11,632 nucleotides of DNA from a virus: UHGV virus genome UHGV-0155908; one strand, written 5' to 3'. Shown in pieces: positions 1,101-7,455 of the stretch. The translations under genes and the position numbers were made by a program. Under the pieces are notes generated by a model. It made no database searches. It worked only from the letters and a program-made list of their open reading frames with translations, and was not told where the DNA came from. The stretch's first letter is position 1. The number at the start of each line of letters is the position of its first letter.

Positions 1101-1384
1101 GGTGGAAGAGTTGAATGCGGAAGGAGGCACTTCTCAACTCGATGCCCGGGTGCTTGAGTTACTGGTTGAAACGTACAGTGGCATCTGGGATGGGACCGTT
1201 AAACCGAAGTGGGGGTAAATCCCTTCTCTCCGCCACTATTTAAGCATTTAGCACATCTTTAATCAGTGATACAAGTCTCGTTGAGGAAAAAGAGAAATTC
1301 ACTTAAAAAAATTCTGTTATCATTCCCTTCTTTATGCAAAAATCCCATCTATCCTTTTTTATAATAATTTTATAGAAAAACATA

Positions 1385-2050
1385 ATGAAGCACGAAAATG
1401 TTAATACAATTATTGCTCTGGCGGGACTGGGGTTAGCTGCCTTTAGTACATTTATGCAATTTAAACCTCAGCAGGATGTTTTGGATATAGTTGTAACAGC
1501 TGATAATTCTGATAACAGAGGTTTTTTCCTGAAAGGAAAACCACTTCCTGATGATATTTTTGGGGAGTCAAAAATCCTCGCTGGACCGTATAATTTGTTT
1601 TTCGAAATATCTAATAATATAAACAGACCTGTTACAATTAAGGGAGTTGACATAAAATTACTTGATGATACAGGGTCGTCAATAGATTATGGCGATATAG
1701 TTTACTCTGAAAGTGATAAAAAAACATTAACCAATCCTGTGCAATATGAACCTCATACAGTAAAAAGGTTTAACGTAGCTATCAATATACCAATCGTTTA
1801 TGGAAAAGAGTTCAATAAATGTTTTCATCCTACAGGCTTTATAGTTGAGCAGGGTAGATATTTTGGCGATATCCGTTTTTGCTATTATTCTGAGGGTGTT
1901 GATTTCTTTGGCAATAAAGTTAATTCCCGTGTTTTGGAAGGCGGTGGTATTTATTTTACTAAGGATGAAAGTAAGTATCTAAACTATAAAGTTACAGTAG
2001 TTACTGGTGATAACACTATTATCAGTAAGGTGGTCACTATTCGCGACTGA
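1385..2050 (+). CDS. hypothetical membrane-anchored protein (N-terminal hydrophobic helix) in the int-proximal cargo position
   Basis: 221-codon ORF; N-terminus TIIALAGLGLAAFSTFMQF is a likely signal-anchor or TM helix with no lipobox Cys. AT-rich like 48..839. Converges on the integrase 3' end with only 11 nt between stops. A TATAAT hexamer lies upstream at 1360-1365; the SD is weak. Confidence 0.6.
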   Translation: MKHENVNTIIALAGLGLAAFSTFMQFKPQQDVLDIVVTADNSDNRGFFLKGKPLPDDIFGESKILAGPYNLFFEISNNINRPVTIKGVDIKLLDDTGSSIDYGDIVYSESDKKTLTNPVQYEPHTVKRFNVAINIPIVYGKEFNKCFHPTGFIVEQGRYFGDIRFCYYSEGVDFFGNKVNSRVLEGGGIYFTKDESKYLNYKVTVVTGDNTIISKVVTIRD

Positions 2051-2061
2051 CCACCTGTGGG

Positions 2062-3045
2062 TTATTTATCAAGAGTAGGGGTTATCTTGATCTTTCTATC
2101 ATAGACAAGAACTTGAGATTCAGTTTTGTGACCGCTGAACTTCTGTTTATCTCTGGAAGAGCCTTCGTAGTCAGAAATGCTTTTAGCCTTCAGATCATGA
2201 AATGTGCAATCCAGAGGTCTTCCTAGATGGTTAGCTGCTGCTGCTCTTGCTTTTCGCCATGCCTCGTTAAACCCTTTGTAAGAGTAACGTTCTCCATACA
2301 TCGTTTTTATGACCGCACCATCTTCTCCCCATGCTCGACACCGATTCACTGCTGTTCGTAAACGTTCAGTCCATGCTTTTATTTGCTTAACACCCGTTTT
2401 GCCTTGCTGGATGAAAATCCCTTCATCCATTATCTGGGACCAATCCATCTTCAGAACATCGGATACCCTCGCTGCACACAGGTAAGCTATTTCCATTGCG
2501 GCTTTAACCGGTTCACTGGCGTGTTCATAAATCGCCAGGTATTCTTCATCCGTGATGTAGCGATCACGCTTTGGTTTTGGAAACTTGTCCACTCCTACAC
2601 ATGGATTACCAGGAACGAAGCCACGTTGATACCCCCAGCGATAAACTCGAGACATCGAGCTATGTTCATGGTTGGCCTGGACACGGCTTTTCTTTCCTCT
2701 GGCATCCATGTAGCGTCTGACATGTTCTGGCTTAATGGCTTTAGCCTCAGCATCACCGAAAACAGCCAGCAGATATTTTTCATGAGCCAGATAGTCTTTC
2801 TGTGTTCGCGGGGCTAAAGCTGCATAATCCGTGCTGTTTAGGAACTTCTTCCATAATTGGGAAAAGGTAAGTATATTTTTCCTGCCTTCAACCACCTTCT
2901 CAAAAGCGATCCATACCTCTGATTTTGAGGCGCCGGCAGGTGCCAGTTTTTCTGTTGTTCCACCTGGTTTCCAGTAATAACCAGAAGGGCGAAAGAAAAC
3001 GCCCTTTGGCATCCACTCGTTACCGGGTGCTCGTTTGCGACCCAT
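2062..3045 (-). CDS. int: tyrosine site-specific integrase, lambda Int family
   Basis: 327 aa. N-terminus MGRKRAPGNEW...PSGYYW parallels lambda Int MGRRRSHERRDLPPNLYIRNNGYYCYRD (arm-binding domain). Central QQGKTGVKQIKAW parallels lambda EQSKTGVKIAIP. C-terminus FHDLKAKSISDYEGS...GHKTESQVLVYDRK parallels lambda FHELRSLSARLYEKQ...GHKSDTMASQYRDDR, including the catalytic Tyr. Comparison is from recalled lambda sequence, not an alignment tool. Confidence 0.93.
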   Translation of the reverse strand: MGRKRAPGNEWMPKGVFFRPSGYYWKPGGTTEKLAPAGASKSEVWIAFEKVVEGRKNILTFSQLWKKFLNSTDYAALAPRTQKDYLAHEKYLLAVFGDAEAKAIKPEHVRRYMDARGKKSRVQANHEHSSMSRVYRWGYQRGFVPGNPCVGVDKFPKPKRDRYITDEEYLAIYEHASEPVKAAMEIAYLCAARVSDVLKMDWSQIMDEGIFIQQGKTGVKQIKAWTERLRTAVNRCRAWGEDGAVIKTMYGERYSYKGFNEAWRKARAAAANHLGRPLDCTFHDLKAKSISDYEGSSRDKQKFSGHKTESQVLVYDRKIKITPTLDK

Positions 3046-3049
3046 AATT

Positions 3050-3271
3050 TCACTCTATTGCGTTGAAGTTCATGCCCGGAGTGGGCAGAGACCCTGCTGG
3101 TGGATTTAACCTGAATGGATGATTTATATGATACCAAGTGGTTTTAACTGCACCATCGCGGCGTTCAATAAAATAAATACCATTCTGAGTTAAAACTTCT
3201 TTTTGCAGAGACTTCTGTGGTGATCCAGTAGCTTCTGCAAGTTCGTCATCAGTTAGGAAACGATCGCTCAT
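3050..3271 (-). CDS. xis: putative excisionase / directionality factor (by position; sequence unlike lambda Xis)
   Basis: 73-aa ORF immediately upstream of int on the same strand (stop 3052-3050, int ATG 3045-3043). GGAGA lies 7 nt upstream of its ATG. Small and basic/aromatic. Function is inferred from the conserved xis-int arrangement only. Confidence 0.6.
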   Translation of the reverse strand: MSDRFLTDDELAEATGSPQKSLQKEVLTQNGIYFIERRDGAVKTTWYHINHPFRLNPPAGSLPTPGMNFNAIE

Positions 3272-3619: not shown

Positions 3620-4146
3620 TGGCGCAGCTCCACCAGTTCGTTAAAGCGATTCATGAACAGGCCATAGGCTTGACCAGGACGGAGAGGGATGACCTGAACG
3701 AGATCAGAGCAGGGAATACCTTCGAGAATTTCCCACTTCGAACCGTCATCGATTTCCAGATCACGGCGCTCGGTGGCTAACATGGTGAGATCGGCATATT
3801 TCACGACAGCAGCTTGTTCAAGAGAGATACCGAATTTAAAGCGGATAAGACCATCAACATAAGTTTCCATGCGCTGGTAGTCAGGCAGCAATGCTTTGAG
3901 CTGGGCCGGAATATCCTGGCAATATGCCTCCGCAGCGTCGTGCATCAGCGCTTCAAAGGCGAACTCTGGCGGCACAATCTGGCTTACAAGCACAGAGTGC
4001 TGGGCTACGCTGTAGAACTCTGGCAGATGCCCAGCGAATCGACAGATGTTGGAAAGAGCAGTCGCGATATCCTCAACATCGATATCGTCGATTGTGGCGG
4101 TCAGGTAGTTAAATTTTTTACCGGATAATGTCTGAATGTAGCTCAT
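3607..4146 (-). CDS. HD-domain phosphohydrolase (YfdR-like, putative 5'-deoxynucleotidase)
   Basis: Track ORF 3607..4173 trimmed to the Met at 4146, which has GGAGA 6 nt upstream. His...HD signature (AGHLPEFYSVAQHS ... LMHDAAEAY) typical of the HD superfamily. At 179 aa and adjacent to the large upstream protein it matches my recollection of yfdR in E. coli cryptic prophage CPS-53/KplE1. Confidence 0.75.
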   Translation of the reverse strand: MSYIQTLSGKKFNYLTATIDDIDVEDIATALSNICRFAGHLPEFYSVAQHSVLVSQIVPPEFAFEALMHDAAEAYCQDIPAQLKALLPDYQRMETYVDGLIRFKFGISLEQAAVVKYADLTMLATERRDLEIDDGSKWEILEGIPCSDLVQVIPLRPGQAYGLFMNRFNELVELRQCAA

Positions 4147-4274
4147 GGTTTTCTCCATATTGGCGCGCTGCACCGCGCAGATTTTGGTTGCACGAATCCC
4201 TCGCCGGGTGGCGATAATTAATGGAATTACGCTTCAATAAATCCCCGCGGCGCCGGGGATTTAATGCAGAGCAA

Positions 4275-5102
4275 TTAGGCTTTAAAGTTACCGATGAAAG
4301 TTTCCACTGATTCACCTTCGAACTTGCTGATCAGCAAATCGCGGAATTCGTTGGCGATCTCTTCTTCCTTGGCTTCAAGTTGGACGATGCGCAGAACAAA
4401 GCAGGGTTCATCGCTGGTCAGCAAGCTGTTACGCAAGCTAAAGCGGCGTTCACCCAGACCTTCATACGGCACACATTTGAATTCAAACGCCACAGGCATT
4501 ACGTCTTTGCTGCTTGCTTCAACGCTTTGCATCAGGGATTTTTTACCAGCGAAATCACCAGTTTCATGGTCCTGCTGTGTTGCTTGCTGAATAGTGATAC
4601 GACGCACAGCCTGAGCTGCCTGGGAAATCTGCATCGTATTGCCATCAGCATCAAACGCCAGAAGGTAATCGCTCCAGTCTTCCAGCCATTCAGCGATTTG
4701 CTTTTGCTTCAGACGTTGACCATCGATCTGCAGTAACGCGCGGAATGGGGCGGTTTTCTTCAGGGTGATCGAAGCAACGTTATCTGCGTGACCGGGATTA
4801 TCCAGGGTGCCGATGTTGAACACTGAACGAGCGGTCATGTTGTCAGCATCAATGAAGCAACGGGCTGGATCGCTGGCGCTGGCGTAACCTATAGAATAAC
4901 GTGCGAAATCTTCAATACTGGTTGTTGTCATTGCACCACGGAAGCGGAAACGCTCCAGAGAAAAGCGCTCAAGGCTTTCAACGCTAGTACCATCTGGCAG
5001 CAATGCGGTCGGGCAAGCCAGACCATGAATATCATCCAGGTGGTAGCCAGAAAGGACCAGGTCTTTTACCTGCTGAAATGTACCGCTATCTAACTGAGAC
5101 AT
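4275..5102 (-). CDS. hypothetical phage protein, 275 aa (recalled as DUF2303 / YfdQ-like; unverified)
   Basis: 275-aa ORF with AAGGAA SD upstream; protein-like composition. Size and position directly upstream of the HD hydrolase match the yfdQ-yfdR pair as I recall it. Family assignment is from memory, not from a search. Confidence 0.7.
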   Translation of the reverse strand: MSQLDSGTFQQVKDLVLSGYHLDDIHGLACPTALLPDGTSVESLERFSLERFRFRGAMTTTSIEDFARYSIGYASASDPARCFIDADNMTARSVFNIGTLDNPGHADNVASITLKKTAPFRALLQIDGQRLKQKQIAEWLEDWSDYLLAFDADGNTMQISQAAQAVRRITIQQATQQDHETGDFAGKKSLMQSVEASSKDVMPVAFEFKCVPYEGLGERRFSLRNSLLTSDEPCFVLRIVQLEAKEEEIANEFRDLLISKFEGESVETFIGNFKA

Positions 5103-5158
5103 AGAAATTCCTTATTAACTGATGATCGAAGTGGTATCAGTGAGTTTGTTGTTGCGGA

Positions 5159-5530
5159 TCACTGAGCCGCTTTAAGCTTTCCATCCACCGCGCCAGTGAT
5201 CCCGAACAGCTGACCCTGATCTTCCTGCAGGATGGTGAGCTTCCCGCCTTTGTTGACCCACATCGGGGTTTCGGTTGTGTCCTCTTCGGAGGCTTTACCA
5301 CGCGGTGTTGGGGTGCTGTAGTTCAGCTTGTGCTTGATCTTGACGCGCTTCTCTTCAACGGAATTACCCATGCGCTCAAAATCAAATGTGAGGACTACTT
5401 TGCCTTTGTTGCCGTTGTTCAGAACGCCAAGCGCGGTGGTATTAAGTGCTGCCGCGATTTTGTTCATGAACACGCCGGCATCCAGTTCGCCAAGAAAATC
5501 TGGCACTACGGTCATGCGGTCATTACTCAT
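5159..5530 (-). CDS. hypothetical early-left protein, 123 aa (possibly YfdP-like)
   Basis: ORF with GAGGG SD 7 nt upstream of its ATG; protein-like composition; first ORF downstream of the long noncoding tract on the pL strand. Confidence 0.6.
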   Translation of the reverse strand: MSNDRMTVVPDFLGELDAGVFMNKIAAALNTTALGVLNNGNKGKVVLTFDFERMGNSVEEKRVKIKHKLNYSTPTPRGKASEEDTTETPMWVNKGGKLTILQEDQGQLFGITGAVDGKLKAAQ

Positions 5531-6711
5531 GGTTTTACCCTCGTTAAGGCGGCTGCAACCGCCGAACTTTCTCCATACACAACAGAGAAGAGCACCTGCA
5601 TTGGTCGGCGGCTTGCAGGGACCGCTTTCTTTTTGCCCGGGTGGATTGGGTTATGAGCCCGTCGCCCGGTGATGCTCTTTTCTGTTGCGTAAAAAGGGCG
5701 GTACCGAGGTAGAACATTATCTTCGTCCCCCTTGCATAAGGTTGAAGGCCCAGGTACCGCCAAGACTACACACATGGAACTACGGTTATCACAGTCCTAA
5801 GCGTGATTTGGTTGTGGTTGCTGGTGCTGAACTCCAGCTCAGTGGCGCGGTGTTTCAATATCGTAACCGCCCGTTCCATCCGCGTTCGATCAGTCCGTAT
5901 GCTCGCTTAGAACGTTTCGCCTGCTTATCTTTTCTCAACCGTTTGACGGTCAGCCCCGCCATTCACCACAACGAAGAGAGCACTGCCGGTATCCGAATTG
6001 AACGGACCTTTTCGTTGCCCATCACCGCTATCTGTATAGCGGTGGCAGGGATTGAACCTGCCGTTATGCCTTGCTCGTCAATGCTCTCATCGTTGTGTGC
6101 TGACCTTACAGCCAGCATGGTTGGAATGAAGACGCATCACGACTTTTCACCAACTGGGCGGGATCACCATGAAAGAGCCGCCCCTTTAGCCTTTCATGCT
6201 CCCCATCTTTCTAGGTAGTCAATGCCTCCAGTTGGGCATACAACCTTCGGTTATCGCTCCGTCGTCAGCGCCACTCTCCAGGACATTTATAAGGACCGTC
6301 TCCAAGTGGTAACTCTTCCAGTCCCGGTAAGCATCCTGCGAGATGCTTACCATGACCGGCTGATCTTCCCTGAAAAAGGCTGGCGGTTACCGGACAAACG
6401 GGAAAACACCGGGCCGCCAGAACAGGGAGTTACTTGTTATTGCTTTGGCCTGCTTTTAACCACATCAGGCGCGGTGGTAGGTATCTTCGGGCGGGGTGCT
6501 AAGGGGGTGATTAGCCCTTGCCCTTAACACTCCTGCTGGTTTTGGTATTCCTGGCTTGGGTATCGCCACCAGCTATAGGAATTTGACTACGAGTTGCGGT
6601 TAATCAGGCCGCGCCTCTGTTACCCCTCCCGAAGACACCTGTCAGCGAATCATCCGGTTATTCATATGCCACCGGCGGCTACTTCGTGGGCGTCCTGCCT
6701 GTTCGCTGTTG
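5531..6711 (-). other. ORF-poor, GC-rich, hairpin-rich tract between putative pL and the first early-left gene; candidate large structured RNA or leader
   Basis: No minus-strand ORF of 60 aa or more across about 1.2 kb (only 5527..5775, rejected). Perfect hairpins at 6023-6044 (9 bp stem, 4-nt loop), 6326-6351 (10 bp stem, 6-nt loop) and 6380-6420 (7 bp outer plus 4 bp inner stem). On the minus strand 6045-6061 reads GCAGG-TTCAATC-CCTGC, a tRNA T-arm-like stem-loop. GC about 58% in a sampled 60-nt stretch. Confidence 0.3.
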
Positions 6712-6719
6712 ATGAATAA

Positions 6720-6748
6720 AATCTAACTTAACTTAGCTTTTAGATCAA
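6720..6748 (-). promoter_or_regulatory. putative pL-type early leftward promoter
   Basis: On the minus strand: TTGATC (-35; + coordinates 6743-6748), 17-nt spacer, TAGATT (-10; 6720-6725). Lies just beyond the 3' end of the repressor gene and overlaps the operator repeats. Confidence 0.4.
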
Positions 6749-6774
6749 GAAAAAACACCAAACTATTCTTAGCT
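6721..6774. promoter_or_regulatory. OL-type operator repeats (CTTAGCT half-sites)
   Basis: ATCTAActtaACTTAGCT at 6721-6738 matches the OR copy at 7503-7520 in 15 of 18 positions. Inverted ends ATCTAA (6721-6726) and TTAGAT (6740-6745). A second CTTAGCT at 6768-6774. Confidence 0.45.
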
Positions 6775-6802
6775 TGATGTTAAGAGGAAGGTTAGAGGTG
6801 GG

Positions 6803-7429
6803 TTAAAGCTCGTACTGAACGCCTTTGACAACGCCGATGATCAGGCAATTACCGTTAATTGAAATGTTTGGATAGCGTGGATTTAAGGGAACTAAGAACT
6901 TTTGAGGCCCATCGATGACAAGTTTTTTTACAGTAGCCTCGTTTGTCCCATCAAGCCTGGCTACGACTATCTTTCCATGAAGTGGCTCTGCATCTGGATC
7001 TACTATGACTGTTGCCCCTTCAGGGATTGTCGGGAGGCCATTAGGGTTTGTCATCGAATCACCTTTAACCTCCAATGCAAAGGAGCTATCCCCTATGCGG
7101 AGTGATGTCTCTATCCACTTATCTACTTCGCTGAAAACTTCTGCTGCTTTACATTCTGTAAACTGTCCAGCCTGAACCCAGGATATCACCGGAATCCTTC
7201 GCATCTTGGTTATCAGATTGCCTTCAAATTCAGTGCCATAAAGTATGTAATCAATTGATGTGTTGAAATACTTTGCAAGTTTCGCAAGTGACTCGCCTCC
7301 AGGCACATTAACGTCTTTTTCCCAATACCCAACCGCCACATCACTAACACCGCAGAACTTACCCAGTTCTTTCTGCGAGGTTTTGGTTATGCGCCTGAGA
7401 GCTTTGATGCGCTGACCGACAGTTTCCAT
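6803..7429 (-). CDS. cI: CI-like prophage repressor (HTH plus LexA/S24-type autocleavage domain)
   Basis: 208 aa. N-terminal HTH (QKELGKFCGVSDVAVGYWEKD). C-terminal GDSMTNPNGLPTIPEGATVIVDPDAEPLHGKIVVARLDG...KKLV...LVPLNPRYP closely parallels lambda CI [40 protein letters not shown]...KKLI...LQPLNPQYP. An Ala-Gly (WVQAGQ) candidate cleavage site is present. Confidence 0.92.
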   Translation of the reverse strand: METVGQRIKALRRITKTSQKELGKFCGVSDVAVGYWEKDVNVPGGESLAKLAKYFNTSIDYILYGTEFEGNLITKMRRIPVISWVQAGQFTECKAAEVFSEVDKWIETSLRIGDSSFALEVKGDSMTNPNGLPTIPEGATVIVDPDAEPLHGKIVVARLDGTNEATVKKLVIDGPQKFLVPLNPRYPNISINGNCLIIGVVKGVQYEL

Positions 7430-7455
7430 TTGAACACCATAAATAAATTAAAAGG

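Follow-up and report, generated by a model that had tools for sequence, protein, structure and literature searches.

What does a small gene lodged between the attachment site and the integrase gene of a prophage contribute to its host or its phage? The question is raised by the UHGV virus genome UHGV-0155908, an 11,632-nucleotide (nt) stretch of DNA analysed here in full (hereafter the window), in which open reading frame (ORF) ORF221 (1385-2050, + strand) converges on the integrase gene int (2062-3045, - strand). ORF221 is a complete coding sequence running from ATG to TGA and encodes 221 amino acids (aa) at 34.5% guanine-plus-cytosine (GC) content. The reading frame checks out at these coordinates and, as an earlier annotation of this DNA (the original prediction) had it, the two stop codons are set apart by a spacer of exactly 11 nt (2051-2061, CCACCTGTGGG). 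The kind of gene is familiar, a prophage moron for a membrane-anchored extracytoplasmic protein in the lysogeny/integration region, and the protein family itself is undescribed. We propose, at a probability of roughly 40%, that the protein excludes other phages at the envelope, a function that we infer with support coming from genomic context.

ORF221 was compared with an E. coli allele 95% identical to it, from which it differs by 17 synonymous and 10 non-synonymous codons, and with a second E. coli allele, for which the ratio of synonymous to non-synonymous codon differences is 10 to 7. With synonymous and non-synonymous sites counted approximately, the ratio of non-synonymous to synonymous change (dN/dS) is roughly 0.2, which indicates on this allele comparison that ORF221 is under purifying selection. 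This ratio, 58 full-length relatives and an alignment-based AlphaFold model with a predicted local distance difference test score (pLDDT) of 91.8 together identify ORF221 as a real gene. A spurious reading frame was considered and dropped, as both the dN/dS and the family contradict it.

Topology and fold are strongly predicted: we regard it as highly probable that the gene encodes a bitopic N-in/C-out protein with a periplasmic beta-sandwich, which bears out the type II, periplasm-facing arrangement originally proposed. Residues 1-33 (1385-1483, +) run from a short cytoplasmic tail (MKHE..N) through a transmembrane helix (about residues 6-26) to the juxtamembrane motif QF-P--D-L, and residues 34-221 (1484-2047, +) form a predicted periplasmic beta-sandwich with an inserted helix pair. 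The best 19-residue Kyte-Doolittle window (residues 6-24, score 1.73) is the sole hydrophobic segment and leaves about 195 residues after it, in agreement with the N-terminal hydrophobic helix and soluble domain of about 190 aa read earlier from the sequence. Across 51 aligned family members the helix has a mean Kyte-Doolittle score of 1.83, and its N-terminal flank is more positive than its C-terminal flank in 48 (mean charge +1.5 versus -1.1), so that by the positive-inside rule the N terminus lies inside and the C terminus outside. Cys146 (TGT, 1820-1822) and Cys166 (TGC, 1880-1882) are both present in 47 of the 51 members, 39 of which have exactly two cysteines in all, and in three of the four exceptions the pair is replaced together. 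Because the two cysteines co-vary they are predicted to form a disulfide (codons within 1820-1882, +), hence to lie in an oxidising compartment, and the bond probably stabilises the periplasmic sandwich. A lipoprotein was also considered and dropped, since there is no lipobox cysteine.

The AlphaFold2 model, built from the 51-sequence family alignment (predicted template modelling score, pTM, 0.82), supersedes a poor run from five sequences (pLDDT 63) and places a helix at residues 3-26 ahead of the beta-sandwich, with both cysteines carried on short helices at 141-147 and 160-169. In the same alignment N77, D173 and N177 are invariant and P118, C146, C166 and G176 nearly so. The mean frequency of the most common residue is 0.51 over residues 1-33 and ranges from 0.21 to 0.46 in other segments, except for residues 166-183, which also reach 0.51. 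The transmembrane helix carries a small-residue face (A11/G14/A18). As conservation of the anchor segment equals that of the best periplasmic motifs, the helix probably does more than anchor the protein.

Structural comparison of the model returned a FixG-related protein (FixG-C; 2r39, score 10.5), Spo0M (5cl2, 9.4), the TMEM106B luminal domain (8b7d, 9.3) and ApaG (1xvs and 2f1e, 9.0-9.2); in Foldseek, TMEM106B, a type II membrane protein, ranked first (E 7e-4). A search of the viral folds in BFVD with the ORF221 model gave nothing below E 1e-3. The LEA-2-like luminal domain of TMEM106B shares with ORF221 a type II single-pass topology followed by a beta-sandwich. TMEM106B is a eukaryotic lysosomal protein, however, with 12-18% identity to ORF221 over an alignment covering about 60% of the domain, and ORF221 has in addition the cysteine-bearing helix pair and a C-terminal beta-meander. 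ORF221 gave no match to Pfam LEA_2 (PF03168) and no full-domain superposition, which places it outside the LEA-2/TMEM106B-like group. Likeness to the C-terminal Ig-like domain of FixG/CcoG (2r39) and to ApaG (1xvs, 2f1e) is at the level of fold only (6-15% identity, about 100 residues); both differ from ORF221 in architecture and context, and nothing beyond "binding module" should be read from them. The structural matches fix the fold class and not the function.

ORF221 is the founding member, represented in the window, of an undescribed and rare family of bitopic membrane proteins. Among 5.8 billion clusters a word-indexed search picked out four relatives, from E. coli (95% identity), Dickeya (54%), Symbiopectobacterium (52%) and a metagenome (41%). 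An exhaustive profile search of 1.84 billion representatives (50% clustering) found 58 clusters at E <= 1e-3, nearly all of them 210-240 aa long and matching end to end. Members occur in Vibrio (parahaemolyticus, alginolyticus, harveyi, vulnificus and fluvialis), Tolumonas, Pantoea and Serratia, and among the Alphaproteobacteria in Pseudooceanicola, Rhizobium and Robiginitomaculum; the distribution is extremely sparse and patchy, and every named member is annotated "hypothetical protein". ORF221 had no PHROG match at E <= 1 and no match in PADLOC-DB v2, with stray matches for four (weak, PHROG) and three (PADLOC-DB) of the 51 relatives. A sequence-profile search of the PDB gave only a chance match at E 0.23.

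How the gene came to lie where it does can be read from related loci. Positions 1211-1311 (+) hold a degenerate copy of about the last 25 nt of tRNA-Ser(CGA) (3' end at about 1211-1239) and of about 80 nt of the downstream attachment-site (att) arm, with decayed TGAGAAAAT-type repeats. This segment matches the intact tRNA-Ser beside mtfA in related E. coli loci, and a tRNA gene scan of the window found none. Since 1211-1311 constitutes the prophage's left att copy, ORF221 is flanked by att and int, and the assignment of the gene to an int-att slot was correct. From position 849 on, the window shows about 99% identity to draft and metagenome contigs of E. coli, in which the same genes adjoin mtfA, tRNA-Asn and an intact tRNA-Ser(CGA). 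None of 5,426 complete E. coli genomes matched the locus by megablast, and the element has come to light in draft and metagenome assemblies alone; a search with the integrase region found only relatives at 78% identity or less. In the complete genome of E. coli CUWW10 the integrase of a related tRNA-Ser element is 78.8% identical to that of the window and only 115 nt separate tRNA-Ser from the int stop; that is, the slot is empty. Homology of the window to this empty slot stops at about 1311 and starts again at 2069, so the insert amounts to about 750 bp and consists of a 73-nt AT-rich leader followed by ORF221.

ORF221 has in this way been inserted between two features that are adjacent in the CUWW10 element, as expected of a moron, and its composition (34.5% GC, compared with 46% in int and 51% in the sequence downstream of position 3000) is, likewise as in morons, unlike that of the surrounding phage genome. 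Aligning these loci shows what appears to be a self-contained, horizontally acquired moron sitting exactly between the tRNA-Ser att arm and the int stop of an E. coli prophage. The leader of the inserted module (1312-1384, +) is a candidate for ORF221's own promoter: a -10 hexamer of consensus sequence (TATAAT, 1360-1365) is present, a good -35 is lacking and the Shine-Dalgarno sequence is weak, and a consensus scan for promoters gave matches at chance level only. In the intact att copy (E. coli locus L001, about 7399-7435) three direct TGAGAAAAT repeats stand just downstream of tRNA-Ser; these repeats, decayed in the internal att copy of the window (about 1279-1311), are probably arm-type binding sites for the integrase. 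The CUWW10 element (L030 6782-13572) carries, further downstream, gtrA, gtrB and a glucosyltransferase gene for O-antigen modification, disrupted by copies of IS1.

Relatives of ORF221 lie in several kinds of setting. In Vibrio fluvialis the relative lies between the integrase gene and the S24 repressor gene (int-cI) of a P2-like prophage (GPA replicase, CP76), which is a classical lysogeny and exclusion slot, so that a temperate-phage location is found in two unrelated prophages (att-int here, int-cI in V. fluvialis). The V. fluvialis slot (L031 4086-8235) also has an 83-aa ORF and an LRAT/NlpC-P60-like gene, possibly making up a multi-gene lysogenic-conversion module. An IMG/VR contig places a further relative at the edge of a truncated prophage, adjoining a helix-turn-helix/ImmA-like gene pair. 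In locus L020 a 963-aa ORF (3795-6686, -) reads as a tape-measure-like N terminus joined to a UmuC/DinB-like C terminus, either from truncation of a prophage by recombination with a polV locus or from an assembly chimera.

The Vibrio parahaemolyticus relatives are cassettes of chromosomal integrons: downstream of each ORF stand attC-like repeats about 130 nt long (TAACAAA...GCGTTA type), an IntI gene is present in the locus (L024), and neighbouring cassettes encode Abi_C, PLD, NERD and HigAB. ORF221 itself has no attC and sits in a prophage. Nine of 57 V. parahaemolyticus cassettes reportedly provided defence in the work of Getz et al. 2025, as summarised in a paper citing it. The Tolumonas relative is in a cassette-like array with Shedu-type (SduA_C) and FRG-domain genes. 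In Dickeya fangzhongdai the 54%-identical relative (L007 10001-11191) is convergent with an AbiQ/ToxN-type toxin gene (PADLOC AbiQ, E 1.4e-49), 33 nt lying between the two, and is near an ATPase gene matching Old/AriA/GajA (Old/Gabija-like), and the island of the Symbiopectobacterium relative is similar. The Dickeya island also carries a MobA relaxase gene and a RelA/SpoT-like gene (PDC-S33). Metagenome relatives were found between a fragment of a type I restriction-modification S-subunit gene and hsdR, upstream of a phosphoribosyltransferase and reverse-transcriptase (retron-like) pair; near a KAP nucleoside triphosphatase and an integrase; and on a plasmid-like contig with Rep3, Hha and PrlF/YhaV. 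The Serratia fonticola relative (L018 7980-8661) is a broken reading frame, with 148 aa open and residues 1-217 covered in tBLASTn, near tRNA-Sec, an IS3 insertion sequence and an Rhs toxin gene with its immunity gene (about 0.6 kb away); a further ORF close by we took by eye to be AbiH-like. No partner gene is conserved beside family members, so the gene always travels alone.

The gene recurs in lysogeny slots of prophages, in integron arrays and in defence islands, and this makes exclusion the most likely role of the protein. The superinfection-exclusion or surface role that the original prediction associated with the int-att slot is accordingly plausible. We propose that it would be made in the lysogen and act at the envelope against other phages, with the periplasmic domain binding a component of the incoming phage (tail tip, tape-measure or ejection proteins) or the conserved transmembrane helix engaging the inner-membrane route of entry; in either case genome entry would be blocked, as it is by superinfection-exclusion proteins. 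With a cytoplasmic tail of only about five residues the protein would not sense cytoplasmic phage molecules, which puts its action in the periplasm or the membrane. Anchored exclusion proteins with an extracytoplasmic domain include the lactococcal Sie2009-type proteins, encoded between int and the repressor gene, as well as HK97 gp15, T4 Imm and P22 SieA. ORF221 resembles these proteins as a small single gene of atypical composition in the lysogeny/integration region of a temperate phage, by its predicted N-terminal anchor with most of the protein lying beyond the cytoplasm, and by its Vibrio relative between int and cI; its predicted location in the membrane and periplasm is also theirs. Unlike them, it has no similarity to PHROGs, which include known exclusion proteins, and its family extends outside phages. 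In the PHROG, Pfam and NCBIfam searches it fell in none of the described exclusion families (SieA/SieB, Imm, Sp, Cor, Ltp, Sie2009 and others).

Integrons offer a second comparison. Their cassettes are rich in phage-defence genes, about one third of the validated defence cassettes of mobile integrons carry transmembrane helices, and one such cassette, Deva, appears to block injection (bioRxiv 10.1101/2024.07.02.601719, 10.1101/2024.07.02.601686). The Vibrio relatives are like the Deva/BrcWGS21 and Brigantia cassettes in being small single genes carried by integrons, whose products have a transmembrane helix but lack known domains. For Deva an octameric pore is predicted, and ORF221 itself is in a prophage rather than an integron. 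An extended reading, which we hold to be possible and rather doubtful, is that ORF221 founds a new family of single-protein periplasmic anti-phage factors that block genome entry by means of the helix and the disulfide-locked sandwich. A gene of about 0.7 kb would then pass between prophage slots (att-int and int-cI), cassettes of chromosomal integrons and defence islands in both Gamma- and Alphaproteobacteria, and its mechanism would be unlike that of catalogued exclusion or defence proteins.

Several observations weigh against exclusion. ORF221 and the 51 aligned relatives have no usable match in Pfam, NCBIfam, PHROG or PADLOC, and 50,697 phage genomes and 72,556 plasmids, searched by tBLASTn with ORF221 and three relatives, gave no match. 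The fold matches span only about 100-120 of 195 residues at 6-18% identity and are to generic beta-sandwiches. A distant member (E 1e-13, alphaproteobacterial contig) lies co-directional among nuoLMN, birA, RNase J, proS and lolCD, and this core-gene context hints that some of the family, at the least, may serve purposes other than defence. Many genes unconnected with defence also travel in integron arrays and islands, which makes guilt by association weak evidence. Finally, the hydrophobic segment may be a cleavable signal peptide instead of an anchor, the domain being periplasmic either way.

Some of these points favour a non-phage envelope protein, whose sandwich would bind a lipid, metal or glycan ligand and alter envelope physiology, for instance stress tolerance or colonisation; such lysogenic-conversion genes are exemplified by bor and lom. 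The sandwiches nearest in fold bind ligands or metals (FixG-C, ApaG, a Cu chaperone and the LEA-2-like TMEM106B domain), the invariance of the polar residues N77, D173 and N177 speaks for a fixed binding site and not an arms-race surface, one distant member sits among core genes, and the alleles show purifying, not diversifying, selection. Most contexts of the family are, however, mobile elements and defence islands, and the patchy distribution fits an accessory trait under intermittent selection. On balance we consider a role unconnected with phages unlikely.

An orphan immunity protein is still less probable. It would protect against a periplasm-acting toxin (a bacteriocin or an effector of the type VI secretion system or Rhs type) and be anchored like the colicin M immunity protein, to which the topology of an N-terminal anchor and a small, disulfide-containing periplasmic domain would be suited. 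The nearness of the Serratia relative to an Rhs toxin-immunity pair points the same way, as does a CdiI-type immunity gene in one E. coli prophage variant (L002). Yet no cognate toxin gene was adjacent in about 12 contexts examined, the broken Serratia copy is on the opposite strand to the Rhs module, and conservation of the helix and polar motifs from Gamma- to Alphaproteobacteria would be unusual for fast-evolving immunity proteins.

We assign similarly low odds to an abortive-infection effector, in which the helix would oligomerise through its small-residue face and permeabilise the inner membrane once the periplasmic domain detected infection. The conserved A11/G14/A18 face within a highly conserved transmembrane segment is consistent with such an effector, as are neighbours of the AbiQ/ToxN, Abi_C-domain cassette and (by eye) AbiH-like kinds, and defence systems often use membrane effectors. 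One helix of about 20 residues, with neither an amphipathic nor a charged pore-lining face, is poorly suited to this task, however, and no partner sensor gene is conserved beside family members. Exclusion at the envelope remains our preferred reading of the protein.

The close apposition of ORF221 and int raises the separate question of what the junction does. It was claimed originally that 11 nt leave no room for a terminator. A consensus scan found no canonical intrinsic terminator at the ORF221/int junction; the claim is weakened, however, by a perfect 9-bp inverted repeat (AGGTGGTCA-N11-TGACCACCT, 2028-2036/2048-2056) that straddles the ORF221 stop and is followed on the + strand by a U-rich tract (GUGGGUUAUUUAUC) running into the int stop. 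Since the repeat straddles the stop, termination or 3'-end protection can overlap the coding ends, and we regard 2028-2056 as a hairpin that may terminate the convergent transcripts or protect their 3' ends. Perfect repeats of this type occur at seven positions in the window (about five hairpins) compared with 0.44 expected from shuffles, and the hairpin is identical in the E. coli alleles, which are near-identical here and so carry no covariation evidence. Rfam gave nothing at gathering score in the window, and a sub-threshold STnc410 match inside ORF221 (17.9 versus 50 bits) was dismissed as chance. Convergent transcription may interfere with int expression; convergence on int is not a trait of the family, relatives converging on toxN or forming co-directional cassettes.

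A tandem cassette upstream suggests how the junction arose. The 3' end of a second integrase gene survives as a remnant of roughly 285 nt (852-1137, -; 73-78% identical), preceded by a second cargo gene (48-839, +; 263 aa, 35.7% GC), giving the order att arm, variable cargo, int 3' remnant, second att arm, ORF221, intact int. The upstream cargo gene, which occupies the equivalent att-int slot of this decayed cassette, ends about 10 nt short of where homology to the int remnant begins. We compared the tandem-cassette regions of other assemblies (L001 7268-10000; L019 6289-8000) and found that ORF221 is constant and the first-slot cargo varies, with 370-aa, DUF4325 and 152-aa genes in the L001-L006 assemblies and a 176-aa ORF in L019. 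Between the window (from 849) and E. coli locus L001, 108 of 112 differences lie left of position 2000, and the 9.6 kb to the right differ at four sites. The differences thus cluster left of the int stop, with which the recombination boundary therefore coincides. On these comparisons the locus has the look of a hotspot for cargo exchange, anchored at the 3' end of int and at the att arm, and the tight 11-nt ORF221/int junction simply marks the point of exchange.

Phage morons in the HK97/HK022 sense and the accessory hotspots of P2/P4-type phages are the natural comparisons for such a locus. ORF221 is like both, as an extra gene of deviant GC with a candidate promoter, a terminal hairpin and a neighbouring slot of interchangeable cargo; the hotspot differs from those of P2/P4 in being the att-int junction of a tRNA-Ser-integrating prophage. 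That ORF221 is instead a regulatory locus, its transcription into the int 3' end yielding antisense RNA that damps integrase with the protein incidental, fits the close spacing of the stops and the missing canonical terminator and is very improbable, for the protein is under purifying selection and conserved where there is no integrase (in integron cassettes and beside toxN), a hairpin with a U-rich tail ends the gene, and the different cargo and similar junction of the upstream cassette mark a cargo-exchange point and not a designed antisense system, an idea that we dropped on these grounds.

The remaining features of the window concern its other genes. The upstream cargo gene (48-839) matches phrog_9664, of unknown function (E 8.6e-43), gives weak matches to Mrr_cat and PD-(D/E)XK nuclease models (E 0.06-0.17) and had no match in PADLOC or NCBIfam; it is a candidate nuclease-type defence gene. 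The integrase encoded by int is a tyrosine recombinase of 327 aa (Phage_integrase PF00589, E 6.5e-12), and the integrase gene is followed by a DUF4224 excisionase-like gene (3050-3271, -). The early genes of the prophage (yfdP-, yfdQ- and yfdR-like) presumably resemble those of CPS-53, judging by Pfam matches rather than by direct comparison. In the minus-strand operon a perfect inverted repeat of about 10 bp (4238-4265) between the HD-domain (yfdR-like) and DUF2303 genes is probably a terminator or processing hairpin. The stretch from the yfdP-like gene to the cI-like repressor gene (5531-6802, about 1.27 kb) has no Pfam-supported ORF, several ORFs of 100-177 aa and two perfect 9-10-bp hairpins (at about 6023 and 6326) with no Rfam match, and may hold a small or non-coding gene.

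Should the inference of exclusion fail, ORF221 would be an ordinary conserved hypothetical moron. The locus records exactly where cargo is exchanged in a tRNA-Ser prophage, at the stop codon of the integrase gene. Defences that block entry are under-represented in catalogues, which cytoplasmic nucleic-acid sensors dominate. If exclusion is correct, the product of ORF221 would be a compact protein, from a new family, that keeps phages out at the level of the envelope, and a single cargo gene would prove common to prophage lysogeny slots, integron cassettes and defence islands.

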